A DNA stretch of 51,842 bases from a virus (Duplodnaviria; Caudoviricetes), in IMG/VR virus record IMGVR_UViG_3300012953_000044, positions 1 through 51,842 of that record. The stretch is one strand, 5' to 3'. The notes below the pieces were generated by a model. The model saw only the letters and a program-made list of their open reading frames with translations, did not search any database and was not told where the DNA came from. The position numbers and the translations under genes were made by a program. Below, piece by piece: positions 9,553 to 39,437 of this stretch. Numbering within the stretch: the stretch's first letter is position 1; every line of letters begins with the position of its first letter.

Positions 9553-11776
9553 ATTATATAGAGAAATAACAAGCTTGATTCCTAAATCAGTAGTCTCTAA
9601 TAAAAATAGGGGAAGAACGTGGTTATATGGGTATAATGAAAAATATGATATAGTGGTTATATCTAAGACAGGTCAAATTGAAACCGTTATTGAAATTAAT
9701 GGATTAAAAATTGCATTACCCAAACCTCCGAAAGATATAGATAAAAGGTCTCCAAAAAAAGAAGAGCAGTATTGGGAAGCAAAACCTATTTCTAAAGAAC
9801 TTAACCGTATTAAATCTATATTTCAATGGCATGAAACACCTGATGTTTTTAAGTCTCAATGGGTAGAGTATATTGAAAAAGAGTTTGATAGAAGAGATCA
9901 AGGATATTGGTTTATGAATAATGGCATGCCTACTTACATCACAGGAACTCATTATATGTATTTACAGTGGACTAAGATTGATGTAGGTAATCCTGATTTT
10001 AGAGAAGCTAATAGAATATTTTATATATTCTGGGAAGCTTGTAAAGCGGATAAAAGAAGTTTTGGAATGTGTTACTTAAAAATCAGACGTTCTGGATTTT
10101 CATTTATGAGTTCTTGTGAAGGAGTTAATAAAGCTACTATAACTAAAGATGCTCGTATTGGAATACTTTCTAAAACAGGAGCTGACGCTAAAAAAATGTT
10201 TACAGATAAAGTAGTTCCTATTTCTAATAACTACCCTTTCTTTTTTAAACCTATTCAAGATGGTATGGATAAACCTAAAACTGAATTAGCATACAGAGTT
10301 CCCGCCTCAAAGATTACAAAAAAGAATATGCATACGTTAGCGGATGAGGAGTTAGAAGGGTTAGATACTACTATTGACTGGAAGAATACTGGTGATAATA
10401 GTTATGATGGAGAAAAATTACAATTACTTTTACATGATGAAAGCGGTAAGTGGGAAAAACCAGATAACATATTGAATAACTGGCGAGTAACTAAAACATG
10501 TTTGCGTTTAGGTAGTAAGATAATTGGCAAATGTATGATGGGATCTACCTCTAATGCTTTAGATAAAGGAGGGTCAAATTTTAAATCTTTATATGAAGAT
10601 TCAATGCCTAATAAACGAAATGCAAACGGCCAAACTAAATCGGGATTATATTGTTTATTTGTTCCAATGGAGTGGAATTTTGAAGGATATATAGATAGAT
10701 ACGGAATGCCTGTTTTAAAAACACCAGCTAAAGCGATAATAGGTATTGACGGTGAAAACATAAAGGTAGGAGCGGTAGATTACTGGAAGAATGAAGTAGA
10801 CTCTTTAGCTCAAGATCCTGATGCTTTAAATGAATTTTATCGCCAGTTTCCACGTACCGAGTCTCACGCTTTTAGAGATGAGAGTAAACAATCTCTATTT
10901 AATTTAACTAAAATTTATCATCAGATAGATTATAATGATTCATTAATTATAGATCATCATTTAACACGAGGTTCTTTTAGTTGGGAAAATGGAATTAAAG
11001 ACACTAAAGTGATTTGGTCGCCCAATAGAAGTGGAAGATTTTTAGTAAGCTGGACTCCCGCTAAGCATTTGCAAAATAGAATGATTACAGAGAGAGGTCG
11101 TAAAAAACCAGGGAATGAACACTTAGGTTCATTTGGATGTGACTCTTATGATATTTCTGGGGTAGTGGTTGGTAAGGGATCTAATGGTGCTTTACACGGC
11201 TTAACTAAATTTAATATGGATGACGCTCCAAGTAATGAGTTTTTTTTAGAATATATAGCTCGTCCTCAAACTGCAGAGATATTTTTTGAAGAGGTGTTAA
11301 TGGCTTGTATATTTTATGGAATGCCTATTTTGTGTGAGAATAATAAACCGCGATTACTATATCATTTTAAAAACCGAGGGTACAGAGGGTATTGCATGAA
11401 TAGACCTGATAAAACTTACAATAAATTATCTAAAACTGAACGTGAATTAGGCGGTATTCCTAATACATCTGAGGATGTAAAACAGTCTCATGCGTCAGCA
11501 ATAGAATCGTATATTGAGAAACATGTAGGGATAGATTCTCAAGGTACTTATAGGGAGACGGATGACATGGGAACTATGTATTTTCAAAGAACTTTAGAGG
11601 ACTGGGCAAAGTTTGATATTAGTAATAGAACTAAGTTTGATGCAGCTATTAGTTCGGGATTAGCGATTATGGCTAATCAAAAGCACTTATACACACCATC
11701 TAAACAAAAATCAAAAATAAGTGTTAACTTTGCAAGATATAATAATAAGAGTACACTTAGTAAAATAATTACATGA
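9530..11776 (+). CDS. terL: Terminase large subunit
   Basis: Walker A variant KIRRSGFS, Walker B LLLHDESGK, motif III GST, nuclease FGCDSYD and KFDAAIS; TTG start. Confidence 0.9.
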   Translation: MQSQDQNKLYREITSLIPKSVVSNKNRGRTWLYGYNEKYDIVVISKTGQIETVIEINGLKIALPKPPKDIDKRSPKKEEQYWEAKPISKELNRIKSIFQWHETPDVFKSQWVEYIEKEFDRRDQGYWFMNNGMPTYITGTHYMYLQWTKIDVGNPDFREANRIFYIFWEACKADKRSFGMCYLKIRRSGFSFMSSCEGVNKATITKDARIGILSKTGADAKKMFTDKVVPISNNYPFFFKPIQDGMDKPKTELAYRVPASKITKKNMHTLADEELEGLDTTIDWKNTGDNSYDGEKLQLLLHDESGKWEKPDNILNNWRVTKTCLRLGSKIIGKCMMGSTSNALDKGGSNFKSLYEDSMPNKRNANGQTKSGLYCLFVPMEWNFEGYIDRYGMPVLKTPAKAIIGIDGENIKVGAVDYWKNEVDSLAQDPDALNEFYRQFPRTESHAFRDESKQSLFNLTKIYHQIDYNDSLIIDHHLTRGSFSWENGIKDTKVIWSPNRSGRFLVSWTPAKHLQNRMITERGRKKPGNEHLGSFGCDSYDISGVVVGKGSNGALHGLTKFNMDDAPSNEFFLEYIARPQTAEIFFEEVLMACIFYGMPILCENNKPRLLYHFKNRGYRGYCMNRPDKTYNKLSKTERELGGIPNTSEDVKQSHASAIESYIEKHVGIDSQGTYRETDDMGTMYFQRTLEDWAKFDISNRTKFDAAISSGLAIMANQKHLYTPSKQKSKISVNFARYNNKSTLSKIIT
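11725..11732 (+). promoter_or_regulatory. Candidate -7 promoter box TAACTTTG upstream of portal
   Basis: TAnnTTTG inside 3' end of terL, 41 nt before ATG 11773. Confidence 0.35.
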
Positions 11777-14208
11777 AAGCAGTAAAAATCGATATACAAT
11801 CTGCTGCCTTTCCTGATCAGTTTGTCTCTGACAAAAAGAAGGCTACTAAAGAGTTTGGATTACAAGTAGGTCAGGCTATACAATACGAATGGTTTCGTAA
11901 AGACGGAATGAACTGTAGGTTTTATAACCAATGGGCCGACTTTAACCGTTTACGTTTGTACGCCAGGGGAGAGCAGTCAGTAGCAAAATACAAAAATGAG
12001 TTAGCGGTAGATGGAGATTTATCGTATTTAAATTTAGACTGGACTCCAGTTCCTATTATACCAAAGTTTGTGGATATTGTGGTAAATGGAATGGCAGATA
12101 GAATGTTTAAAGTAAACTGTGTAGCGACAGATGCTATGTCTGCTGAAAAGAGAAGTCAATTCCAGCAAATGGTAGAGATCAATGTAGCTGCTCAAGATTT
12201 ATTTAAACAAGTAGAGAGAGATTTTAAAATGGAAGTTTTCCAGGTGGACCCAGAAACTCTTCCATCGAGTGATTCTGAGATGGAACTGTACATGCAGTTA
12301 AATTATAAACCAGGTATAGAAATTGCAAATGAAATTGCTATAGATACCATGTTGGAGGAAAACCATTATGTGGACGTAAGAAAGAGAGTAGATATGGACC
12401 TAACAACTTTAGGAATAGGAATGACTAAACATATGTTTCAACAGGGTGATGGAATTAGAGTTGATTATGTAGATCCAGCAAACGTTGTTTATAGCTATAC
12501 TGAAGACCCTTACTTTAAAGACTGTTTTTATTGGGGAGAATTAAAAACTGTACCTATTACAGAGGTTTTAAAAATAAACCCTGATCTCACACAGGAAGAT
12601 TTAGAGGAAATTTCAAAATACAGTCAAGCTTGGTATGATTACTATAATGTAGCGGCTATGTATGAGAACAGTATGTTTGCAAGAGACTCCTGTACTTTAT
12701 TATTTTTTAATTATAAAAGCACAAATAGTTTTGTATATAAAAAGAAACAACTTGCTGAGGGTACTTTTAAAACTGTAGAAAAGGATGATGAGTTTAATCC
12801 ACCAGAAGAAATGATGGAGGAAGGAAAATTCGAAAGAGTAGAAAAAAGAATTGATGTTTGGTATGATGGGGTAATGGTGATGGGAAGCAACTTATTGTTA
12901 AAGTGGGAGTTAATGGAAAACATGGTAAGACCAAACTCTGCTAATCAATATGCTATGCCTAACTATGTGGCTTGTGCTCCTCGAATGTATAAAGGAACAT
13001 TAGATTCATTAGTAAGAAGAATGATTCCTTTTGCTGATTTAATACAAATTACTCATCTTAAATTACAACAAGTGGTTTCTAAAGTTGTTCCAGATGGAGT
13101 ATTTATAGATGCTGATGGATTAAGTGAGGTTGATTTAGGAACAGGTAATGCTTATGACCCATCTGATGCGTTGCGTTTATATTTCCAAACAGGTAGTGTG
13201 GTAGGAAGAAGTTATACTCAAGATGGAGAATATAATAATGCTAAAGTTCCTATTACTCAATTAACATCTAATAGTGGAGGAAGTAAAATGCAAATGCTAA
13301 TTGGAAATTATAATCATTATTTAGGAATGATTAGACAAGTAACAGGGTTAAACGAAGCAAGAGACGCGTCTACTCCAGATCCAGATTCTTTGGTAGGAGT
13401 TCAAAAATTAGCTGCTTTAAATTCTAATGTAGCTACACGTCATATTTTAAATGCCAGTCTATATATAACCAGAACTATTGCTGAATGTTTATCTATTAGA
13501 ACAGCAGATATTTTAGAGTATGCAGATTTCAAAGAAGAGTTTGCTATGCAAATTGGAAAATATAACTTAGGTATTATAGAAGAAATTAAAAACCTTTATC
13601 TATATGACTTTGGTATTTATATTGAAATGTCTCCAGATGAAGAGGAAAAAGCTCAATTAGAAGCTAACATTCAAGCTGCTTTAAAAATGGGAGGTATTGA
13701 TTTAGAGGATGCTATTGATATTAGAACTATTAGTAATTTAAAGATGGCTAACCAGTTGCTAAAAGTTAAAAGAAAACAAAAAGAAGAAAAAACTAAACAG
13801 ACCGAAATGCAGAAGCAAGCTATGCAGGCTCAACAGCAACAAGCTCTGCAGCAGCAAGCAGCACAAGCTAAAATGCAACAAACTCAAGCAGAGTTACAAT
13901 CTAAGATTCAAATTAAACAAGCCGAGATCGCTTTTGAAATAGAAAAACAAACCAATGAAGCAGACCTTAAACGTAGATTAATGGATGTAGAATTTAGATA
14001 TAACATGCAGTTAAGAGGAATGGAACAATCACAGATTGATGCAAGAGAAACTCAAAAGGAAGATGCTAAAGCAGCTCGAATTAGTTTAGGAAATACTCAA
14101 CAATCTAAAATGATTACTCAGAGAAAAACAGGAGGTGCCCCTATTAACTTTGAGTCTAACGAAGATAGTTTAGATGGATTTGACTTAGCGGAATTTGAGC
14201 CTCGATAA
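11773..14208 (+). CDS. Portal protein
   Basis: Follows terL; 811 aa; PIIPKFVDIVVNG and QVTGLNEARD segments; Gln-rich C-terminal coiled coil like podoviral portal barrels. Confidence 0.85.
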   Translation: MKAVKIDIQSAAFPDQFVSDKKKATKEFGLQVGQAIQYEWFRKDGMNCRFYNQWADFNRLRLYARGEQSVAKYKNELAVDGDLSYLNLDWTPVPIIPKFVDIVVNGMADRMFKVNCVATDAMSAEKRSQFQQMVEINVAAQDLFKQVERDFKMEVFQVDPETLPSSDSEMELYMQLNYKPGIEIANEIAIDTMLEENHYVDVRKRVDMDLTTLGIGMTKHMFQQGDGIRVDYVDPANVVYSYTEDPYFKDCFYWGELKTVPITEVLKINPDLTQEDLEEISKYSQAWYDYYNVAAMYENSMFARDSCTLLFFNYKSTNSFVYKKKQLAEGTFKTVEKDDEFNPPEEMMEEGKFERVEKRIDVWYDGVMVMGSNLLLKWELMENMVRPNSANQYAMPNYVACAPRMYKGTLDSLVRRMIPFADLIQITHLKLQQVVSKVVPDGVFIDADGLSEVDLGTGNAYDPSDALRLYFQTGSVVGRSYTQDGEYNNAKVPITQLTSNSGGSKMQMLIGNYNHYLGMIRQVTGLNEARDASTPDPDSLVGVQKLAALNSNVATRHILNASLYITRTIAECLSIRTADILEYADFKEEFAMQIGKYNLGIIEEIKNLYLYDFGIYIEMSPDEEEKAQLEANIQAALKMGGIDLEDAIDIRTISNLKMANQLLKVKRKQKEEKTKQTEMQKQAMQAQQQQALQQQAAQAKMQQTQAELQSKIQIKQAEIAFEIEKQTNEADLKRRLMDVEFRYNMQLRGMEQSQIDARETQKEDAKAARISLGNTQQSKMITQRKTGGAPINFESNEDSLDGFDLAEFEPR

Positions 14209-14236: not shown

Positions 14237-14244
14237 TAACTTTG
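14237..14244 (+). promoter_or_regulatory. Bacteroidota-type -7 promoter box TAACTTTG
   Basis: TAnnTTTG in portal-scaffold gap, 22 nt before ATG 14266. Confidence 0.6.
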
Positions 14245-14265: not shown

Positions 14266-15429
14266 ATGGACGAAAATCAAACACCGAAAATAACGGTAAG
14301 GGAAGTTACCGGAGAAGAAAAATCTCGAGCACAAGTAGAGGAGGTATTACTAAAAAAGCATGAAGAAAAACATAATGTTGAAGAAAGTAAGACTGACGTG
14401 GAGAGAGTGGATACAAGCACTGAGAGTTCCACCCCCGAGAATAAACAAGAAGAAGTACAACAGAAAGATGAAACACAAGAAGCCTCATCAAGCTTAACTG
14501 ATGAAAACGTTCTTTCATATATTAAAGAAAGGTATAATAAAGACATATCTTCTGTGGATGATTTGTTTGCTCAAAGAGAGTTAAATGAAGACTTACCTGA
14601 AGATGTAGCTGCATACTTTCAATACAAAAAAGAAACGGGTCGTGGAATTGGTGATTTTGTAAAATTACAACAAGATTACGATTCTATGGATAATGATAGA
14701 TTGTTGTCTCAATATTATTCTCAAACCGAAGAAGGTTTAGATAGTGAGGATATTAAAGACTTAATGGATGAAAAGTTTGGATATGATTCAGATTTAGATG
14801 ATCCTAAAGAAATTAAGAAAATTGAGAGAGCAAAGAAAAAGGAACTTGTTAAAGCTAAGAAGTTTTTTACTGAACAAAAAGATAAATATAAAACTCCTCT
14901 TGAGTCAAGTGGGAGCGGATTATCTGACGAGGACAGAGAAAAATTTAATAGCTATAAAAGTTATATAGAAGAGTCGACCTCTGCTCAAGAGGCCCAGAAG
15001 AAAAGGTATGATTATTTTTTAGATAAGACCAATGAGGTCTTTAACGATGAATTCAAAGGTTTTGAGTTTAATGTCGGAGAAAAAAGTTTTACATTTAAAC
15101 CTGGAGATAACAAAGAGTTGAAGAGCAAACAATCTGACGTTAATAATTTCGTGAATAAATACATGGATGAAAAAACAGGATTGATTGCAGACCCAGCTGG
15201 TTATCATCGCGCTATGTCGGTGGCTATGAATTTAGATAAGTTTGCTGAATTCTTTTACAATCAAGGTGTTACCTCGGCTGTAGATGATGTAAGTAAGAAG
15301 TCTAAAAACATAAACATGGAAATGCGTAGAACTCCAACTAATCTAAGTAAAGATGGCTTAAAGATTAGAACGGTTGGAGACACAAGTAGTGGAAGAGGGC
15401 TCAAAATTAGAAGTATTAAAAAAAGTTAA
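14266..15429 (+). CDS. Capsid scaffolding/assembly protein
   Basis: Highly acidic helical protein between portal and major capsid gene; basic C-terminal GLKIR repeats. Confidence 0.7.
   Translation: MDENQTPKITVREVTGEEKSRAQVEEVLLKKHEEKHNVEESKTDVERVDTSTESSTPENKQEEVQQKDETQEASSSLTDENVLSYIKERYNKDISSVDDLFAQRELNEDLPEDVAAYFQYKKETGRGIGDFVKLQQDYDSMDNDRLLSQYYSQTEEGLDSEDIKDLMDEKFGYDSDLDDPKEIKKIERAKKKELVKAKKFFTEQKDKYKTPLESSGSGLSDEDREKFNSYKSYIEESTSAQEAQKKRYDYFLDKTNEVFNDEFKGFEFNVGEKSFTFKPGDNKELKSKQSDVNNFVNKYMDEKTGLIADPAGYHRAMSVAMNLDKFAEFFYNQGVTSAVDDVSKKSKNINMEMRRTPTNLSKDGLKIRTVGDTSSGRGLKIRSIKKS
14360..14497 (+). CDS. Nested +1-frame basic peptide (45 aa) with ArfA-like KKKYNRKMKHK motif
   Basis: Own translation MKKNIMLKKVRLTWREWIQALRVPPPRINKKKYNRKMKHKKPHQA*; alternative ATG at 14375; host frame uses atypical GC-ending codons here. 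Confidence 0.55.
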   Translation: MKKNIMLKKVRLTWREWIQALRVPPPRINKKKYNRKMKHKKPHQA

Positions 15430-15451: not shown

Positions 15452-16873
15452 ATGGCAGTAAATGCAACACCAGGGTTTGACCTTCAGCCAAGTGCGGAAA
15501 GGGTAGCCCTACCAAGTAACTACATTACCAATTTCGATTTCTTGAATCAGTATCTTCCAGATACTTATGAGAAAGAATTTGAAAGATATGGTAATAGAAC
15601 AGTAGCTTCATTCTTAAGAATGGTAGGCGCTGAAATGCCTTCTAACTCAGACATGATAAAATGGGCTGAACAAGGAAGGTTACATACTAAGTATACTAAT
15701 GTAACATTAGCAGCAACAGGTGCTACTACAGGTACATTAACAGTAGCTGACACATTAAGTCCAGCAGGAAGTAATATAGCGGTAAGAATAGGTCAAACTA
15801 TTTTTATCTCTGATAACACTCCAGGGTCTACATTGAGTAATAAAGCAGTTGTAACTGGTGTGACTCAGAACACGATTGCTGTAGCATTCTATGAGGCTTT
15901 ATCTGTTGTTCCAGCAACTCCATCAACATTAACTGTAATGATTTACGGTTCGGAATTCGCTAAAGGAACTAACGGAATGGCTGATTCATTAGAAGCTAAC
16001 GATGTGTTCTTTGACAACAAACCAATTATCATTAAGGATACTTACGAGGTAAGTGGTTCTGACATGGCTCAAATTGGATGGGTTGAAATATCTACTGAAA
16101 ACGGTGGATCAGGATACTTATGGTACATGAAGTCTGAGCACGAAACAAGATTACGTTTCGAAGACTACTTAGAAACAGCAATGATTGAGGCAGTTCCGGC
16201 TGCTCCTAACTCAGGTGCAGAGGCAGCTTTATCTACTTCAGCAGGTGCGATAGGTACAATCAACGCAGGTTCTGAAGGAGTATTCTACGTAGTAGGTGAG
16301 AGAGGAAATGTTTGGGGTGGTGGTAATCCAACTACTCTTGCAGGATTCGATTCAGTTATTTCAAGATTAGACAAGCAAGGTGCTATTGAAGAAAATGTTC
16401 TTTTTGTTAATAGACAATTCTCTTTCGATATGGATGATATGTTAGCTGCTCAAAACTCTTATGGAGCGGGTGGTACTTCATATGGTTTATTTGATAATGA
16501 TGAAGATATGGCTCTTAACTTAGGGTTCACTGGATTCCGTAGAGGATATGACTTCTACAAGTCTGACTGGAAATACCTTAACGATGCTTCAATGAGAGGT
16601 GATATTGTAGGTGGTGCAATCAATGGACTTTTAGTTCCAGCTGGTTCTACATCTGTATATGACCAAATCTTAGGTAAAAATGCAAAGCGTCCATTCTTAC
16701 ACGTTCGATATAGAGCGTCTGAGACTGAAGACAGAAGATATAAAACTTGGATCACTGGTTCTGCTGGTGGAGCAAGAACATCTTCTTTAGATGCAATGCA
16801 GGTTAACTTCTTGAGTGAAAGAGCTTGTTGTACTTTAGGTGCAAACAACTTCTTCTTATTCCAAGATGCATAA
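15452..16873 (+). CDS. Major capsid protein
   Basis: 473 aa after scaffold; strong codon bias (TTC, TAC, AAC); followed by strong terminator; EFERYG...KWAEQGRLH and C-terminal LSERACCTLGANNF. Confidence 0.85.
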   Translation: MAVNATPGFDLQPSAERVALPSNYITNFDFLNQYLPDTYEKEFERYGNRTVASFLRMVGAEMPSNSDMIKWAEQGRLHTKYTNVTLAATGATTGTLTVADTLSPAGSNIAVRIGQTIFISDNTPGSTLSNKAVVTGVTQNTIAVAFYEALSVVPATPSTLTVMIYGSEFAKGTNGMADSLEANDVFFDNKPIIIKDTYEVSGSDMAQIGWVEISTENGGSGYLWYMKSEHETRLRFEDYLETAMIEAVPAAPNSGAEAALSTSAGAIGTINAGSEGVFYVVGERGNVWGGGNPTTLAGFDSVISRLDKQGAIEENVLFVNRQFSFDMDDMLAAQNSYGAGGTSYGLFDNDEDMALNLGFTGFRRGYDFYKSDWKYLNDASMRGDIVGGAINGLLVPAGSTSVYDQILGKNAKRPFLHVRYRASETEDRRYKTWITGSAGGARTSSLDAMQVNFLSERACCTLGANNFFLFQDA

Positions 16874-30965: not shown

Positions 30966-33900
30966 ATGGAAAAATTAGAAGAATTATATTCATTAATTCC
31001 TGAAGGGATGTACTCTTCACTCGAGGAGTTCCAATTAGATTTAGAACAAGAAGGATTAGAGTCTATATTTGAACTTATACCTGAGGGTATGTATACCGAT
31101 CTTGAAGAATTTACAAATGACTTTGTTGAGGTAAAAAAAAAAGACGAATCACAACCTACTGGGGAAGAGGAAGTTACGGAATCCGATATCGATATTCAAA
31201 CGGAAATTCCTGGCTTATCGGATGCTTCTCTTCCGGAAGATCCTAATATACCCCAAGACCCTTCTATAGAAGTAGATCAACCATCTCAATTTGCAAGTGA
31301 GTCTCCAGAAGGAGAAGAAGAGATTGTTACAGAACAAGTCCAGTATGACCCTATGGAAAGAGGGGTAGACGCTACCGTTACTTATGATGTAGATGCGACA
31401 CCATTTGAAAGATCCTTATCTTATATAACTGGTGACTTAATTGAAAGAGAAGAAGAAGAAGTGGTTTCTAAAATGAAATACCATTTTACTGATTATGGTT
31501 TTGAGTTTGAAGAAACCGGAATAGGTGACAAAATGATTGTTACAGCTGACAATGGAAAAGTATTAGAAGTAAATTTAGATCCAAACTTTGGATTAAGAAG
31601 TGAAGAAATATCCTTAGAACTTAAAGAATTTTTAGAAAAAAATAAAGTAGTTAATCCTGATATAGATTTATTAATGGAAGATTACGATGAAAGTCGTAAA
31701 AAGTATTTTTCTACCGAAGCTATGCAGGCAGATATAAAAGATATACACACTCAAGCGAGTACTCTCACTAAAAGATACAAACAATTTCTTTCTAATTCTA
31801 ACGATAATCAAGCACAAATAGATGCGTTAATGGAACTTCCGCAGTTAAGTGATGAGCAGGTTGTGTTATATAATGAATTAATAGATAATAAGAAAAATCT
31901 ATTACTAACTAAAAGTAATTTACAAAAAGAATTTAAAGAATTTAAAACATATGAATCTCAAATTAGTGCGGCTGTAGGGGATTATGTAGCTATGAAACAA
32001 GATATAGGTAATGAGTTTGGTACATTAGTAAAAGGAATGTATAATGCTTTTGCAACTCAAGCGGTACCTAAAATGGTAGCGTCAGCCTGGGGCTTGGGGG
32101 TGGATGGTTTTTACGCGATTGCTCAAGCAATTGATGAGGATTATGGAATGGATGAGGAAGAGAAAAAAGAAAGATATATAGAGGTAGCTAAAGATTTAGG
32201 ATATGAAGTGCCGGAGAATATAAATGAAGAAGGTGTTTTTGAATCTTGGTTTGATCAAATGATGAACACAACATTTGCGGGAGAAGCAGAAACTATAGTA
32301 GATATTTTTCCAGGAGAGATTAAAGAACAATTGATTGCTGAAAATTACGACCCCACTAAAGTTAAAAGAACCAATAGAAGCTTTGAAATATGGAAAGAAG
32401 ATGGGGGATTATTAGGCACTGGAGGTTACGAAGATGTTCCGGTTTACGCTAAAGATATAAGTAGAGGAGCGCGATTAAAACGTTTAGTGTTAGATAGAGA
32501 AGTTAAAGAAAACAAACAACCTCAAAAGGCGGCAATTAGATCAGCTTTAGAGTGGGCAGCAGCAGAAGGGGTGTCTGATGAAAAGGTAGAGGAGATGATG
32601 CAAAAGAGCTGGATATATGAAGGTATGTTCGGTTTAGCAGAATCAGGACCCGCTATCCTGTTAGGGTTATTAGGCCCAGGGAAACCAAAAGCTATAAAGA
32701 AAGGAGCGGGCCTATTAAAAAATACAGGTACTCGATTTAAGAATTATCTACAAAGCCCAGGAGCTATGGCTCAAACCATGGGGTTTAGTTTGTTACAAAC
32801 TGATCATTTAATGGAGGAGATGGCAAATGATCCTGATTTTAAAAATGTAACTGAGACCGAAAAGAAAGCTATAATTTTTCCTTTAGCCATCACTACAGCA
32901 GTATTAGAAAGATATGGTCTTAGAAACATAGCAAGAAATAAAACTATCACTACAGGATTAATGAATCAAGTAACTCGAATGTTACCTAAAGGAGCAACCC
33001 CTAAACTCTTTAAAGAAACTTTAGAGAAAGTAGTATCTAACAATGTAGCACGTGGTATTTATAGGGTGGGAGGAGCTGCATTAGCTGAAGCGGAAACAGG
33101 TGGTCTGCAGCAGGTAGCGGAGATAGGACTTAAAAACGTATGGAATAACATGTATGAAAAAGACATGTTTAACACCCCTGAAATGTGGTCTGAAGAGTTT
33201 GGGGATCAAGTAGTTAGAGCAGCTTTAGCTGAATCTGTAGGAGGATTTGTGTTAGGGTTACCGGGAGGATTAAGCGCAGCATTTAGTAAAGGGGAGATTG
33301 ATGGAGTTCCGGATGAGATGGTTCAGCTTTTTAATACTATCCGTACGGATGAGGTAACTACTGAAGCGTTTAGATCTCAGTTAGATATTAAGGTAGCGAA
33401 TAAAGAAATAACTAAAGAAGAAGCTGCGCAGCAATTAATGAATTTTGAAATTTTATCTGGAGCGGCTCAAACTATTGAAAAGGGAGCGGTATTAAACGAA
33501 GATCAAACTAAAAAAGCTTTAGGGTTAGTTTTCTTAAAACAAAAAATAGAAAACGAGATGGAGGGTATGGACCCTGATCTGGGAACTTATAAAGCAAAAC
33601 AAGAGACGGTGGCTAAGATAAAAGATAAGTTATCTAAGATAGGTACCGATAAAGAAGAGTCAGCTAATTTAAAAGAAGAAACAACTAAAACACAAGACGA
33701 TGCCATTCAAGAGCCAAGCACAGAGACGGTGGATGTACAAGTACAAGCCGAAGATGGCAGAACTATGGGAGATGGAGACACCGAGACGAATATTACCAGA
33801 GAGGGTCAACAAGAAGAACAAACCCCTGTTGGGCAGGAGACGCAGGAGGAAGTAACGATTGAAGAACGATCCGAACAAATAGGTAAATTAATTGAGCAAG

Positions 33901-36900
33901 AAAAAGAAGATTCTCAAACCGAACCTCAACCTATTCCTCGTGAACAATTAGAGGTGGTAGATGAGGTAATATCTATTAATAAAGCCCAACAAGAGGTAAC
34001 AGAAGAAAACCCTTTTAAACAAGGAGTAATAGAGAGAGTAGGTAAAGCAGCCAAAGCTTTAAAGAAAGTCATTCCTAATCTAAAAATTATTATGCATGAG
34101 AGTGCAACTGATTTTAATAAAGCATCAGGTAGAACAGGAAGAGGAGCGTTAGTAGATGGGGTGGTGCATATTAATTTAGAAAAAGCAACCAACTCTACAG
34201 TAGCTCATGAGGCTTTTCATATTGTCTTGCTTAGTAAGTTAGGTACAGATTCCGAAGCTCAAAGAGTTACTAAAAGAATGATGGAATCTATTGCTAAAGC
34301 ACTACCTAAGAATGATCCATTGTTAAAACAAATCAATGAGTTTACACAAGGGTATGAGGCGAATATTCAAAACGAAGAAAAGTTAGCAGAAATACTCGGT
34401 CAGCTATCTGCTAATTATAAAACATTATCAGCGCCGCAGAAGAGTGTTATTGGTAAATGGATTGATAGAATAATGAAAGGATTAGGAATAAATGTATCTG
34501 AGTTTACTCAGTCTGATCAAGATGTTATTGATTTACTTAACACATTAGCATCCAAAGTAACCGCAGGAGTTGAGGTTGAAGAAGGAGATATAAAAGTTAT
34601 AGAAGAGATTAGAGAAGAAACAGGAACGGAGCCTGTTGGTAATCCTACTAACATTAATAAACCTAAATCCAGAGACCAAAAAGAAATAAACTTTAAAAAG
34701 TCTTATGACATGTCTTTGGTTACTCCGGAAAACAAAATAGATTTGTTAGGATTGGTAGATGAGATTGTAGCTAAGAATCAAAAGGTATGGTTCTGGGTAG
34801 CGGACCAGTTAGGTAAAGGAGAATTTAACGGTATTGAAATGGATGCGGGTCCAAGCTATGCGTTAGATCCTACAAATTTAGCTGCTAATATTATATGGGC
34901 AAGTGGTATGAAGCCTAAAGCTATGGCTAACAATGTAGAAAAAGCCGACTATATATTTATTATTAGTGGTTCACCACAAGCCAGTAAACTATTTAACAAA
35001 AAAGTATTTGATGCTTTTGTAAATAAATTAGGAGACTATGCTGCATTTAAAAAATCAGCATTAGCTACTAATCCGGTAAAAGCCGTAAGAGATATATTAG
35101 AAAAGCATGATAGCTGGCCTTCTATCAGGAGAGATGGTAACGGTAGGAAAGGATTACTTAAAGCAATTGTTGCTCAAGAATCTACTCCTAATACTGAATT
35201 CCATAAGCTTGTTAAATCTAAAGATGGTTTTATAAACTTAGATGAATTAAGAGATGGGTTTTACAGAGATAATAACTTTGAGCAAAATGATGTAATGTTG
35301 GTGTTGAAACCAACTGAAGTTGGTGGAAAGTCAAAGCACTCAACTTATGAGACTGATATATTGGGAGAGGTAGTAGGTGTTCCTAATATTAAGTTGGATG
35401 CTTTTGAGATTATGCCTGAAAGTGTTAAAGCTAAATATGAAGGAAAAGAAATGGGTAGGGTGCTGAAAACCCAGGTGGTAGCTCCTTATGGAACAGGAGT
35501 TAAAAAAATTGCTAAACCTGCTAAGAAAAAACCTGCAATTCGTGAGCAGAAAGAATCTAAGCCTACCGTAGAAAAGTTAGCTAACTTTTATGCTATGGAT
35601 AATAAAGGTTTTATTAAGCCTGGGAATGTTTATGACTTAGATGCATTAAGACAATTTGCTTCTCGAGTAGGTTATAAAGTAAAAAGACATCGTGGTGATA
35701 GTGGTGCTACCACAATGTATTCTTTACGTGATGCTAATGATAGACAATTTGTTCCTGTAAAAGGAACTGCACGAACGCGTTTCCAAAAAATTATGGATAA
35801 GTTTGATAGTCCGATGGAGATTATTAAGTTAGCAAGACAAGCTGGTTTTGAGGATACAGAGATAAGTTACTTCTTGCGTAATGAAAAGAAATTAAAAGTT
35901 AAAGAAATAAAAGATCTTCTTAAAGTAGATGTAGATATGTTTGAATCCATGCCTGCTGTATTTGGAAATATCCCAGGTGGTATGGTGGTAGGACGTAAGT
36001 TATATGAAGCTACAATAAAAAAGTTTGAGTCTTTATTACAGAAAAATTCTAAACTTACAAAGGGTAAGCAACGAAATATATCAGATATTATTCAGGAGTC
36101 TATTGAATATATGATGGAGCAAACTCCATATAAGAATGCTACCGAAGGAGTTAAGTCTAAAACATTACCATCTACATTACAACAGCAGCTTCAAATAGAA
36201 ATGCAAGAAGCATTAGGAGGAAGTGCTGTTAAAGATATTAGCAAAACTATTTCCAATCTTAAAAAGATTGTAAGTGAAAAGAAAAGAGGAGCTCGAGAAA
36301 TAAGAGATGTAAAAAGACAATTACAAAGAGCTATTAGAGAAGTAATGCCTAAAGGAGTTTATACCTCTACAGAGGTGAGAAAACTTTTAAGAACTATTCA
36401 AGAGGCTGAACCTAAATGGTTGAAAGGAAATTTAAAAAATCTTGTTCAACAGATAGAAAAAATGGCAGCAGAAAAAAATGTAGATATTTTAAATAAAGCA
36501 ATTGATAAAATATTAAAGCAAAAGTTTGAAGCTGTAGTCTCAGGTATTAAGAAAGGAGTTAAGGTAGATAGTAAGACAGCTAAAATTATTAAAGCAATAG
36601 AGGATAAACTTTATAAGTCCGCTGAAATAAAAGACAATATTGAAAAAGAACAAACAGAGATCTTAGCTAAGATTAATGAGATAAATTTTAAAACTGTTTT
36701 AACGGAGGAGGACCAAACTAATTTATTGATTTTAAACACTGCTTTGGCTATTAATAATTCTAAGTTGATGGAAGATAATAACCCTCGTAAAGCAGATCAA
36801 TTAGCTGAAGTATATAATAATTTAAAAGCCCTCATCTTACAAGGAAGAAATAACTACAAAGAAGCGGCTGCCGAACGATCTAAAAGATATGCTGATAATA

Positions 36901-39437
36901 CGGCAAAGTTTTATCAAGCTTTAACAGGGAGTAAAAACGAGTTAGACTTTAAAGATCCTGATGTTATAGAAAAAATAAAAGAAAAGTTAAAAGCAGATAA
37001 AGATGAGAAGGGAAGTGAGAAAAAACAAGAGGAAAAGGGAGTCAAAAGAATTATAGCTCACTTTAACAATTTAGGAGAAAAAATAATGAGCACTCTAAGG
37101 AGTGCCACTTTAAATTTAGGAGAGCTTACTTCAACATTAGACAAACTTCCTGGCGATGTAATGGGTGAAGGTTTTATAAAAGACTTTATATATCGTAAAG
37201 TAAACCAGTCTACTCGGGTATATAAAGAAAGTATAATGGCTTTAGACCAGATGATGGCTGAAAAAACGGAAGAGTTTTTAGGTAAAGATTATAAATCTAA
37301 ACTAAAAGATTATAGAAAGTATTTAGATTTCACTCAAATAGAAGGAGGTAAGTTTATGAAAAACCCTAAAGAAGTTAAAGATGCTCAAGATAAATATGAT
37401 CAAGATCCTTCGGACACTAATGCTAAGGCCTTACAGAAAGCAGTTAACCGTAATATTCCTTTCTCCGGTCTTACTGCTATGGATTTAATGTATCTCTATT
37501 TTCAGTATAAACAAACAGATACACATGCAGGATTTCAAACTGCTTTAGGAGCTAACTCTGATGTCATTATGGAAGGATTGAGTAAGTACTTTGAAGATAA
37601 CTATCAAGATTTATTAGAGCTCGGAAACTGGCATGTTAATTCTTTGTTTCCATCTTTATATGAAAAGTATAATAAAGTATATAAAACTATATATAATACT
37701 GATTTACCTCAACGAGAAAATTATGCGGGTAGAACATTCAGGCAATTAGATACTAAAACAAAACTTAAAAAAATACAGGAACTAAATAGTCTTGCTTTAC
37801 TTAATGAGATTGGTACTTCTCAAATGAGCACCAATGTAATTGGTAACTCTACTAAGTTAACAGTCAAAAACAAACAGGCTATTATGCCGATAGATTTTTT
37901 TAGTGCTGTAGATTCTTACTTAAAAGACATGGAACATTTCTCTGCTTACGCAGAAAACATGAATGAAATATCTAAGGTTTATTTTAATGAGATTATTGCA
38001 GATGAAATTATAAATCAGTACGGAAAAGAAATGTACGAAACTATAAGAACTGCTTTAATTAACACAGCAACAAGAGGTTCTATGCAATCTGATGCTATGG
38101 TTGGGAAAGTAAATAGTTTTAATAACTTATTTGTTCTTCAAAAATTAGGGGCTGGATTATCTATATATCTTAAGCAGCTTACTTCATCGGTAGCATATGG
38201 AGATGCTATTGGTTTTAGAAACTGGTTGAAAACTGCTATGACGATGGGGCCAAAAGAATTTATAAAAACGTGGCAAGAAATATCTGAAGACTCAGTGTAT
38301 ATTAAGTATAGATATTGGGAAAATATAAACAAAACTATTGAGGCTTATGGAGAGAAAACTTTAGAAGGATATACTCCTGGAGATAAAGGAGATAAACTCA
38401 TGCGATTATTTATGTCTCCAATTAAAGCGGGTGATAAGCAAGCAATATTTATAGGAGGTATTCCAATGTATGTATTCTTAAAAAAGAAATTTATAAAACA
38501 AGGAATGAGTGAGGAAGCTGCTCAGAAGAAAGCCCTATTAATGTTTGAAGAACAAACTAAAGAAGTTCAGCAGTCATCGGACCGACAAGATAAAGATAAT
38601 ATTCAAAATCAAGGAGGTTATGTTCAGTTCTTTAATATGTTTATGTCTGCTCCTAAAGCATACTTCCGTAAATTATTTGGAGGGTATAGAGAACTACGTA
38701 GAAATATAAAAGACGGATCAGGGAAAGGAACTTCGTGGGATAATGCTCGGACTATTGCTCTTTATCAATTTGGATTACCGATGATATTCCAGTGGGCTAC
38801 ATCTGGTTTTCCGATTACGGACTGGGATGATGAAGACACTGAAGATTTAGGAAGATCTGCAATTCTAAGTGTGTTTAATTCTATTTTTATTGTAGGTCAA
38901 ATTGCGGAAATGGTAGCAGATAGATATCAAAAGAAACCATGGTGGAAAGATACTAATCAATTCCCTGTAATAGATTTAGCTACAGATGTGGCAGATAAAT
39001 TAGGTAGAGCTATTGAGGAAGAAGACTCATCAAAATCTTTACAACTATATAAAGAAGCTCTTTATGCTTTATTGCCGCTCACTGGTGGTGCTGGAGTTCC
39101 AATTAAATATGCTTCTATTCCAATGCCTACCTTAGATAGAATGGCTCAGAACCTCTACAAGATAGGTAGAAGCGGAGGGGATCCTAAAGAAGTATTTTTA
39201 AGGTTGTTTAATTATTCAGATTATATTATTGAAGGAGGTAAAAATAAAACTAAACCTAAAAAACGTAGGAAACTTACTAAAACTGAGATGAGAAAATATT
39301 TCCCAGAGTATATGGAAGCTATGGATGATTTTAATAACTCACCTCAAATGAAAGAGTTTAATCAAAAGAAGAAAGACTATAAGGCTCAAGAGAAAAAAAT
39401 AAGACAGGAGATGTTAGACGACATGTTTAAAAAATAA
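30966..39437 (+). CDS. Giant internal virion / large polyvalent protein with zincin-like metallopeptidase motif (2823 aa)
   Basis: VAHEAFH at 34200-34220 with downstream EEKLAE; Gly/Ala-rich helical region; C-terminal helical region typical of large ejection proteins. Confidence 0.7.
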   Translation: MEKLEELYSLIPEGMYSSLEEFQLDLEQEGLESIFELIPEGMYTDLEEFTNDFVEVKKKDESQPTGEEEVTESDIDIQTEIPGLSDASLPEDPNIPQDPSIEVDQPSQFASESPEGEEEIVTEQVQYDPMERGVDATVTYDVDATPFERSLSYITGDLIEREEEEVVSKMKYHFTDYGFEFEETGIGDKMIVTADNGKVLEVNLDPNFGLRSEEISLELKEFLEKNKVVNPDIDLLMEDYDESRKKYFSTEAMQADIKDIHTQASTLTKRYKQFLSNSNDNQAQIDALMELPQLSDEQVVLYNELIDNKKNLLLTKSNLQKEFKEFKTYESQISAAVGDYVAMKQDIGNEFGTLVKGMYNAFATQAVPKMVASAWGLGVDGFYAIAQAIDEDYGMDEEEKKERYIEVAKDLGYEVPENINEEGVFESWFDQMMNTTFAGEAETIVDIFPGEIKEQLIAENYDPTKVKRTNRSFEIWKEDGGLLGTGGYEDVPVYAKDISRGARLKRLVLDREVKENKQPQKAAIRSALEWAAAEGVSDEKVEEMMQKSWIYEGMFGLAESGPAILLGLLGPGKPKAIKKGAGLLKNTGTRFKNYLQSPGAMAQTMGFSLLQTDHLMEEMANDPDFKNVTETEKKAIIFPLAITTAVLERYGLRNIARNKTITTGLMNQVTRMLPKGATPKLFKETLEKVVSNNVARGIYRVGGAALAEAETGGLQQVAEIGLKNVWNNMYEKDMFNTPEMWSEEFGDQVVRAALAESVGGFVLGLPGGLSAAFSKGEIDGVPDEMVQLFNTIRTDEVTTEAFRSQLDIKVANKEITKEEAAQQLMNFEILSGAAQTIEKGAVLNEDQTKKALGLVFLKQKIENEMEGMDPDLGTYKAKQETVAKIKDKLSKIGTDKEESANLKEETTKTQDDAIQEPSTETVDVQVQAEDGRTMGDGDTETNITREGQQEEQTPVGQETQEEVTIEERSEQIGKLIEQEKEDSQTEPQPIPREQLEVVDEVISINKAQQEVTEENPFKQGVIERVGKAAKALKKVIPNLKIIMHESATDFNKASGRTGRGALVDGVVHINLEKATNSTVAHEAFHIVLLSKLGTDSEAQRVTKRMMESIAKALPKNDPLLKQINEFTQGYEANIQNEEKLAEILGQLSANYKTLSAPQKSVIGKWIDRIMKGLGINVSEFTQSDQDVIDLLNTLASKVTAGVEVEEGDIKVIEEIREETGTEPVGNPTNINKPKSRDQKEINFKKSYDMSLVTPENKIDLLGLVDEIVAKNQKVWFWVADQLGKGEFNGIEMDAGPSYALDPTNLAANIIWASGMKPKAMANNVEKADYIFIISGSPQASKLFNKKVFDAFVNKLGDYAAFKKSALATNPVKAVRDILEKHDSWPSIRRDGNGRKGLLKAIVAQESTPNTEFHKLVKSKDGFINLDELRDGFYRDNNFEQNDVMLVLKPTEVGGKSKHSTYETDILGEVVGVPNIKLDAFEIMPESVKAKYEGKEMGRVLKTQVVAPYGTGVKKIAKPAKKKPAIREQKESKPTVEKLANFYAMDNKGFIKPGNVYDLDALRQFASRVGYKVKRHRGDSGATTMYSLRDANDRQFVPVKGTARTRFQKIMDKFDSPMEIIKLARQAGFEDTEISYFLRNEKKLKVKEIKDLLKVDVDMFESMPAVFGNIPGGMVVGRKLYEATIKKFESLLQKNSKLTKGKQRNISDIIQESIEYMMEQTPYKNATEGVKSKTLPSTLQQQLQIEMQEALGGSAVKDISKTISNLKKIVSEKKRGAREIRDVKRQLQRAIREVMPKGVYTSTEVRKLLRTIQEAEPKWLKGNLKNLVQQIEKMAAEKNVDILNKAIDKILKQKFEAVVSGIKKGVKVDSKTAKIIKAIEDKLYKSAEIKDNIEKEQTEILAKINEINFKTVLTEEDQTNLLILNTALAINNSKLMEDNNPRKADQLAEVYNNLKALILQGRNNYKEAAAERSKRYADNTAKFYQALTGSKNELDFKDPDVIEKIKEKLKADKDEKGSEKKQEEKGVKRIIAHFNNLGEKIMSTLRSATLNLGELTSTLDKLPGDVMGEGFIKDFIYRKVNQSTRVYKESIMALDQMMAEKTEEFLGKDYKSKLKDYRKYLDFTQIEGGKFMKNPKEVKDAQDKYDQDPSDTNAKALQKAVNRNIPFSGLTAMDLMYLYFQYKQTDTHAGFQTALGANSDVIMEGLSKYFEDNYQDLLELGNWHVNSLFPSLYEKYNKVYKTIYNTDLPQRENYAGRTFRQLDTKTKLKKIQELNSLALLNEIGTSQMSTNVIGNSTKLTVKNKQAIMPIDFFSAVDSYLKDMEHFSAYAENMNEISKVYFNEIIADEIINQYGKEMYETIRTALINTATRGSMQSDAMVGKVNSFNNLFVLQKLGAGLSIYLKQLTSSVAYGDAIGFRNWLKTAMTMGPKEFIKTWQEISEDSVYIKYRYWENINKTIEAYGEKTLEGYTPGDKGDKLMRLFMSPIKAGDKQAIFIGGIPMYVFLKKKFIKQGMSEEAAQKKALLMFEEQTKEVQQSSDRQDKDNIQNQGGYVQFFNMFMSAPKAYFRKLFGGYRELRRNIKDGSGKGTSWDNARTIALYQFGLPMIFQWATSGFPITDWDDEDTEDLGRSAILSVFNSIFIVGQIAEMVADRYQKKPWWKDTNQFPVIDLATDVADKLGRAIEEEDSSKSLQLYKEALYALLPLTGGAGVPIKYASIPMPTLDRMAQNLYKIGRSGGDPKEVFLRLFNYSDYIIEGGKNKTKPKKRRKLTKTEMRKYFPEYMEAMDDFNNSPQMKEFNQKKKDYKAQEKKIRQEMLDDMFKK
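31133..31246 (+). other. Candidate programmed -1 frameshift / transcriptional slippage cassette
   Basis: A10 run (31133-31142), stem-loop 31163-31234, -1 frame open 34 codons to TAA 31244-31246. Confidence 0.45.
33700..33855 (+). CDS. Nested +1-frame basic peptide (51 aa), MPFKS-xxQRRWM type small phage protein
   Basis: Own translation MPFKSQAQRRWMYKYKPKMAELWEMETPRRILPERVNKKNKPLLGRRRRRK*; A-rich leader with A at -3; local GC rise in host frame. Confidence 0.65.
   Translation: MPFKSQAQRRWMYKYKPKMAELWEMETPRRILPERVNKKNKPLLGRRRRRK

Follow-up and report, generated by a model that had tools for sequence, protein, structure and literature searches.

Does the +1 frame of a phage head gene hold a second gene, and does the product of that gene act on ribosomes in the manner of the rescue factor ArfA? 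The locus that raises this question is an open reading frame (ORF) at 14360–14497 (+ strand) of the window, the whole 51,842-nt stretch of viral DNA analysed here, and it encodes a basic peptide of 45 aa. It lies inside a 387-aa gene (14266–15429, +; phrog_16786, function unknown) placed between the gene for the portal protein (11773–14208, +) and that for a virion structural protein, likely the major capsid protein (15452–16873, +; phrog_13704). On the two grounds of this position and a mostly helical model, the enclosing gene likely encodes the scaffold. A relative in Flavobacterium phage elemo is annotated as a structural protein, the predicted fold has no match in the PDB at E ≤ 0.001, and its viral matches are uncharacterised proteins, one from Cellulophaga phage phi18:3 among them. 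Cultured relatives of the gene belong to Flavobacterium elemo phages and, more distantly, to Cellulophaga and Maribacter phages; because of these relatives and the marine sources of the DNA that best matches the window, we infer that the phage infects marine Bacteroidota. A search of the full window for tRNA and tmRNA genes found none. In the gap upstream of the enclosing gene lies a match (14237–14244, +) to a −7 promoter box that we take to be of the Bacteroidota type. Matches to this box occur at chance level across the genome (65 found, 68.7 expected), and some sit at or just before + strand gene starts (781, 14237, 17826, 18987 and 27535).

The ORF spans codons 32–77 of the enclosing gene, which form its acidic N-terminal linker, and has ATG codons at 14360, 14375 (an alternative start) and 14468. 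Its product contains 16 Lys/Arg and 1 Asp/Glu, arranged as a predicted helix (residues 14–20), a Pro-x-Pro linker and a basic tail ending in Tyr-x-Arg-Lys-x-Lys-His. Coordinates, strand, +1 frame, peptide sequence and second ATG were all recovered as a preliminary description of the locus had given them. That description had also taken atypical codons in the overlap as a sign of dual coding, an argument that proved weak: the overlap has a CAI of 0.61, the mean for the genome being 0.70 (sd 0.07), and codons 200–300 of the same gene, outside the overlap, have an equally low CAI. We dropped codon atypicality as evidence, the dip being only at about the 10th percentile. Base composition at the +1 start sites is A-rich and not discriminating. 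Judged from this single genome, the ORF is not beyond chance. When the enclosing gene was randomly recoded with synonymous codons 5000 times, 10% of the recodings gave a +1 ATG-initiated ORF of at least 45 aa within the first 120 codons, which favours a reading of the ORF as an untranslated shadow of Glu/Gln-rich text, and 0.7% reproduced the exact tail motif. A further Lys/Arg-rich +1 ORF, of 56 aa, lies deeper in the gene (14798–14968, +) and is probably a shadow.

We accept the ORF as a real overprinted gene because it is conserved among relatives and because selection acts on the +1 frame, both as read from sequence comparison. A protein search with the single 45-aa sequence found nothing; homologues surfaced with profiles. 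Among 80 loci selected by the enclosing protein, 17 keep the peptide, every time in the +1 frame, and in most of the 63 others the linker is shorter and +1 stops are scattered along it; these loci, like those counted below, are related and not phylogenetically independent. Approached from the peptide side, each of the best 80 profile matches overlaps a long ORF and is read in its +1 frame; for 79 this ORF is the same enclosing gene as in the window (31–90% identical), and the remaining one is cut at a contig end. Of the first 600 stretches matched by the peptide alignment, in a scan of 17 of 64 parts, 381 were confirmed, and we estimate that about 2400 viral stretches match the patterns of the peptide family.

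Selection was assessed on 82 distinct 28-codon cores, in which identity is 72% in the +1 frame versus 50% in the enclosing frame and the third codon position of the enclosing frame is the least variable. Changes that alter the enclosing protein and leave the peptide silent number 317 against 128.6 expected (2.5-fold enriched), and the reverse class is depleted (84 versus 147.7). Most of these cores were found through the peptide motif, and the sequences are related; the test was therefore repeated on 12 distinct cores selected by the enclosing protein, in which 61 of 122 changes are +1-silent versus 29.7 expected. Linkers that lack the peptide are near neutral (30 of 99 changes +1-silent; Fisher p = 0.004 versus 61/122), a narrower two-class Fisher test on the same host-selected set gives p = 0.096, and the body of the enclosing gene has the opposite, ordinary substitution pattern. 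Dual coding of the scaffold linker, as first proposed for this locus, is thus supported, with the +1 ORF conserved in a subset of scaffold homologues and synonymous variation in the enclosing frame reduced; the comparison named beforehand as able to refute it did not do so. The cost to the enclosing protein is likely low, since shifting the reading of Lys-rich codons back by one base gives Glu/Gln/Thr-rich text that a floppy acidic linker would tolerate.

The same data bear on two readings in which the ORF is not an independent gene. The shadow reading, together with its variant in which the ORF is the relic of a captured gene, gains something from one locus (L208) where the otherwise invariant Trp of the peptide is replaced by TAG. 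Against it, the invariant Pro and Arg of the peptide each use four codons while the residue in the enclosing protein changes, the third-position entropy of the enclosing frame is 0.36 in the overlap versus 0.49–1.08 elsewhere, and linkers without the peptide drift almost neutrally; we regard this reading as largely refuted and the least probable of those considered here. Alternatively, the +1 frame could be reached by programmed frameshifting, giving a fusion to the scaffold that needs no start of its own. The +1 frame does open within a translated gene, and 15 of 89 upstream stretches contain six or more consecutive A. A shared slippery site is nevertheless absent, with none of the 89 holding eight A or an RF2-like site, and 88 of 90 distinct loci retain an in-frame ATG, created from 10 different dipeptides of the enclosing protein (about 57 of 88 expected by recoding). 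This ATG most often lies 12 codons ahead of the Trp, as in the free-standing homologues described below; the two loci without it have GTG at the usual start (L147) or no start there (L190). A frameshift product is accordingly very improbable.

The end of the ORF coincides with a second feature. A hairpin of 6 bp at 14485–14504 (+) holds the stop codon of the peptide in its 8-nt loop and shows compensatory changes (19 cells versus 5.9 when shuffled), with pairing at 79% against at most 51% when the structure is slid; both figures refer to a structure chosen from the same sequences. It is perfect in 9 of 13 peptide carriers and in 9 of 25 non-carriers and therefore, being found in relatives without the peptide too, probably belongs to the enclosing gene, where it is possibly a control element of the scaffold mRNA. 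In three of four sequencing runs, contigs of more distant relatives stack on 14415–14500, the stretch that encodes the basic tail, a pattern consistent with constraint at the nucleotide level. Single-base gaps in the contigs of run X14 are scattered along the whole enclosing gene and look like errors.

The gene comes and goes among relatives. In a quick tree of 100 enclosing proteins, the deepest split has carriers on either side, mixed among non-carriers, a distribution that fits either an ancient overlap lost several times or exchange on several occasions; in this tree one locus labelled peptide-less carries the peptide (L209), and two enclosing genes are truncated or broken (L055, L077). 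No copy was found elsewhere in five near-complete relatives that lack the peptide in the linker, nor in five further non-carriers that include the cultured elemo phage, in a search that recovered the copy of the window itself at E 3.5e-21. By these comparisons the 45-aa gene is accessory and dispensable.

Homologues of the peptide also occur as genes of their own. Profile searches matched 69 called proteins of the family and 52 clusters at 50% identity. For one matched cluster 32 loci were taken (L162–L193), and 13 distinct contexts from L162–L189 hold free-standing genes packed among non-structural genes, with neighbours that include topoisomerase-like and exonuclease-like ORFs (labels read from the sequences). 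Two of these copies overlap the next ORF in part (L188, L189), and those of L190–L193 are located at the scaffold gene. The preliminary description had pointed to small free-standing phage ORFs with a related tail, and such ORFs thus exist in other phages. A single pattern run against 185,579 prokaryotic genomes returned eight loci, of which three are free-standing and five overprinted, the latter in MAGs, at the head modules of phages. One free-standing copy belongs to Flavobacterium aciduliphilum (L211:3016–3132, on a 247-kb contig); it sits in an apparent island, next to an ORF that we take to be sirtuin-like, and no terminator was found near it. Among 301 genomes of the class of this species (Bacteroidota), ArfA (PF03889) was found in none, and the peptide family is represented by the seed genome and one weak match only. 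A tblastn search with one free-standing member found no cultured phage that carries the family. A search of the open literature found no account of the peptide family, nor any of DUF7230 or of ArfA-like genes that are overprinted.

How closely, then, is this family related to ArfA? Membership in the strict sense is not supported. At the PF03889 cut-off of 25.5 bits no family member matches (0/13, 0/23 and 0/9), and a PF03889 search of the window genome gave no match. Profile comparison nonetheless points to ArfA. Four of the five PDB matches of the 55-row family profile are ArfA (E 1.4–2), with the peptide aligned to ArfA residues 29–48. An hhalign comparison of the family with the ArfA profile gave probability 84.5 and score 29.9; the highest score among 150 column shuffles was 16.1, and the reversed profile scored 12.6. 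The ArfA profile has 8 rows, and the alignment covers 22–23 columns of the tail only. Overprinted members alone gave probability 74. A chain of profiles leads from the overprinted to the free-standing subgroup (98.7), to DUF7230 (94.7) and to ArfA (95.4), all from small alignments, that of DUF7230 having 3 rows. Members score a median of 13.5 bits with the ArfA profile, whereas none of 117 Lys-rich +1 shadow decoys exceeds 6.7 and none of 165 shuffles exceeds 8.9. The ORF, the selection on the +1 frame, the free-standing homologues and this chain are, at the level of sequence, the solid parts of our account.

ArfA (E. coli YhdL; PDB 5MDV, 5H5U, 5U4I) and the peptide are both small and basic, with a short helix, a predicted one in the peptide, followed by an Asn-Lys-Lys…Tyr-x-Arg-Lys-x-Lys-His tail, and both are borne by phages. 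The predicted helix of the peptide is in register with ArfA residues 15–24 without gaps, although hhalign leaves the helical part unaligned. The Lys-His pair, kept in 52 of 55 family members, is described as the one motif common to ArfA and BrfA, where it contacts U534 of 16S rRNA (PMC6881298, PMC8012679). What precedes the tail is different. The KGKGS segment before the Tyr is missing, leaving a three-residue gap, and GKG occurs in 1 of 55 members, at a different position. In ArfA, Phe25 and the β-strand Gln27–Glu30 are reported to recruit RF2 (PMC8012679); counted back from the Asn, their counterparts in the peptide are Arg and Pro-Pro-Pro-Arg, and the predicted structure of the peptide has no strand where ArfA has the RF2-recruiting one. 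The peptide, unlike ArfA, is encoded inside another gene, and its likely hosts are Bacteroidota. The long C-terminal extension and non-stop regulation of ArfA were not seen for it. The stop codon follows 3–9 codons past the basic tail, in a hairpin loop that is not peptide-specific, and no + strand terminator was found in the region of the 45-aa gene. The Lys-His tail is thus kept while GKGS, Phe25 and the RF2 strand are lost; the earlier claim of ArfA likeness is supported for the relationship of the tail, and membership of the ArfA family is not supported. By this comparison the peptide probably works like ArfA at the ribosomal channel, though it is not an ArfA member.

Two further families help to place the peptide. 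DUF7230 (PF23876; phrog_6310) has the same short tail without GKGS, and 20 of 23 peptide members tested match it (best E 2e-5). Their scores nevertheless stay below the 27-bit cut-off (best 24.9 and 25.1), against 55–63 for true DUF7230 members, and the N-terminal halves differ, with a Leu-Thr-x-x-Glu-Trp helix in the peptide and Asn-Pro-Val in DUF7230. A protein of Pseudoalteromonas phage J2-1 scores above the cut-offs of both ArfA and DUF7230 and shares the short tail, again without KGKGS. The first ESM Atlas match of the peptide scores 0.93, in a cluster with DUF7230 on 11% of its members. BrfA of Bacillus subtilis (PDB 6SZS) likewise has the Lys-His motif and a basic tail for the mRNA channel, but the peptide has no sequence match to it in the PDB search, and BrfA possesses an RF2 β-strand with Phe31 and a terminator within its gene. 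Work on BrfA indicates that rescue factors may differ wholly in their N-terminal halves and be host-specific (PMC6881298). ArfA itself is described, in a survey of 15,259 genomes, as confined to the Gammaproteobacteria, part of the Betaproteobacteria and 10 species of Bacillus (PMC11633108).

We tentatively propose, with confidence a little short of even, that the 45-aa peptide, as a divergent relative of ArfA, is expressed late and rescues ribosomes in Bacteroidota hosts. Internal initiation on the late head mRNA would yield the peptide, whose basic Lys-His tail would dock in the mRNA channel left empty when host ribosomes stall; so bound, it would help a host release factor to free them. Translation, late timing and channel binding are inferred. 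Recruitment of the release factor is the least certain step and might use an interface unlike that of ArfA, perhaps the helix with the invariant Trp. A complex prediction of the peptide family with domains 2–4 of a Flavobacteriaceae RF2 scored 0.00, a result that gives no verdict either way. In a pelagiphage, ArfA is reported to be highly transcribed, both early and late (PMC12753301).

The peptide might also do no more than fill the empty mRNA channel, engaging no release factor. It would then obstruct tmRNA–SmpB or ArfB of the host, or protect idle ribosomes against nucleases. The loss of the RF2-binding strand and Phe25 from a family that conserves its channel tail favours such a plug, and a peptide equal to the SmpB tail is reported to inhibit tmRNA–SmpB binding (PMC8012679). 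The N-terminal helix, however, is as conserved as the tail, with its Trp kept in 82 of 82 cores, which suggests a second contact, and free-standing relatives that contain Pro-x-Val/Ile-x-Arg/Lys form a gradation towards DUF7230 and ArfA; we rate a pure plug as rather unlikely, though it is the main rival. Taken together with the rescue factor, however, it makes a peptide that acts on ribosomes quite probable. Basic tails are found in SmpB, ArfB and nucleic-acid binders too, and the likeness to ArfA could be convergent in a DNA or RNA binder that serves head assembly, in DNA condensation or as a partner of the scaffold. Such a role would suit the strongly basic composition of the peptide, the position of its gene in the head module and the presence of an unrelated basic peptide family in the same linker. 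It accords poorly with the free-standing homologues among non-structural genes, with close relatives that assemble without the peptide, and with shuffled and shadow decoys that fall short of its ArfA score, and we hold it to be unlikely.

The unrelated family was found within the window itself. A second overprinted +1-frame gene (33700–33855, +) encodes a 51-aa peptide of this MPFKS family inside a gene of 2823 aa (30966–39437). Its best 80 matches comprise 68 overprinted in +1, 7 free or unplaced and 5 not parsed; it has no match in Pfam or PHROG, and in the ESM Atlas it falls into hypothetical-protein clusters at 0.95. At two loci (L285, L287) the MPFKS peptide occupies the scaffold linker and the 45-aa-type peptide is absent there. 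At five others (L155, L204, L207, L208, L209) the two are encoded in tandem within a single scaffold gene, both in its +1 frame, an arrangement that resembles a hidden two-gene operon. Canonical ArfA is carried by phages as well. Roseobacter phage CRP-212 (MZ892988.1; L197:389–511) has an unannotated ORF of canonical ArfA type that scores 32.9 bits, over the Pfam cut-off, and overlaps the Glu-rich C terminus of gp38 in the +1 frame. ArfA-type ORFs over the cut-off and unannotated in the records also occur in Caulobacter phage Cr30 (L199) and Pseudomonas phage pf16 (L201). Because of the linker loci of both peptides and the gp38 case, acidic linkers seem to have served repeatedly as landing sites for genes of basic peptides.

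Nested out-of-frame genes are familiar in phages, as in Rz1 within Rz of lambda and B, E and K of phiX174, and are thought to have arisen in place. Like these, the 45-aa gene is complete, with its own start in another frame of a larger gene. Unlike them, it has free-standing homologues and comes and goes among close relatives, and its linker also hosts a second, unrelated peptide family. A broader possibility, which we put forward as speculative and somewhat doubtful, is that the +1 frame of acidic linkers in virion proteins serves marine Bacteroidota phages as a hidden, exchangeable cassette for genes of small basic peptides. One of its genes would be a descendant of ArfA and a new class of rescue factor for a phylum that lacks ArfA, and would maintain active host ribosomes in the late phase of infection, in which mRNA is cut; ArfA, DUF7230 and the peptide family would then form one large, mostly viral superfamily missed by gene callers.

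Annotation evidently misses a layer of phage genes, seen here in two overprinted genes of one genome, in the estimated number of viral stretches that match the family and in the unannotated ArfA of a cultured phage. The 45-aa gene is a clear case of a nested gene with free-standing homologues, and it bears on the origin of overlaps. If the peptide only plugs the channel, it would be a natural 40-residue inhibitor of bacterial rescue. If it rescues ribosomes, DUF7230 would gain a testable function, and release-factor-dependent rescue would extend to the Bacteroidota.
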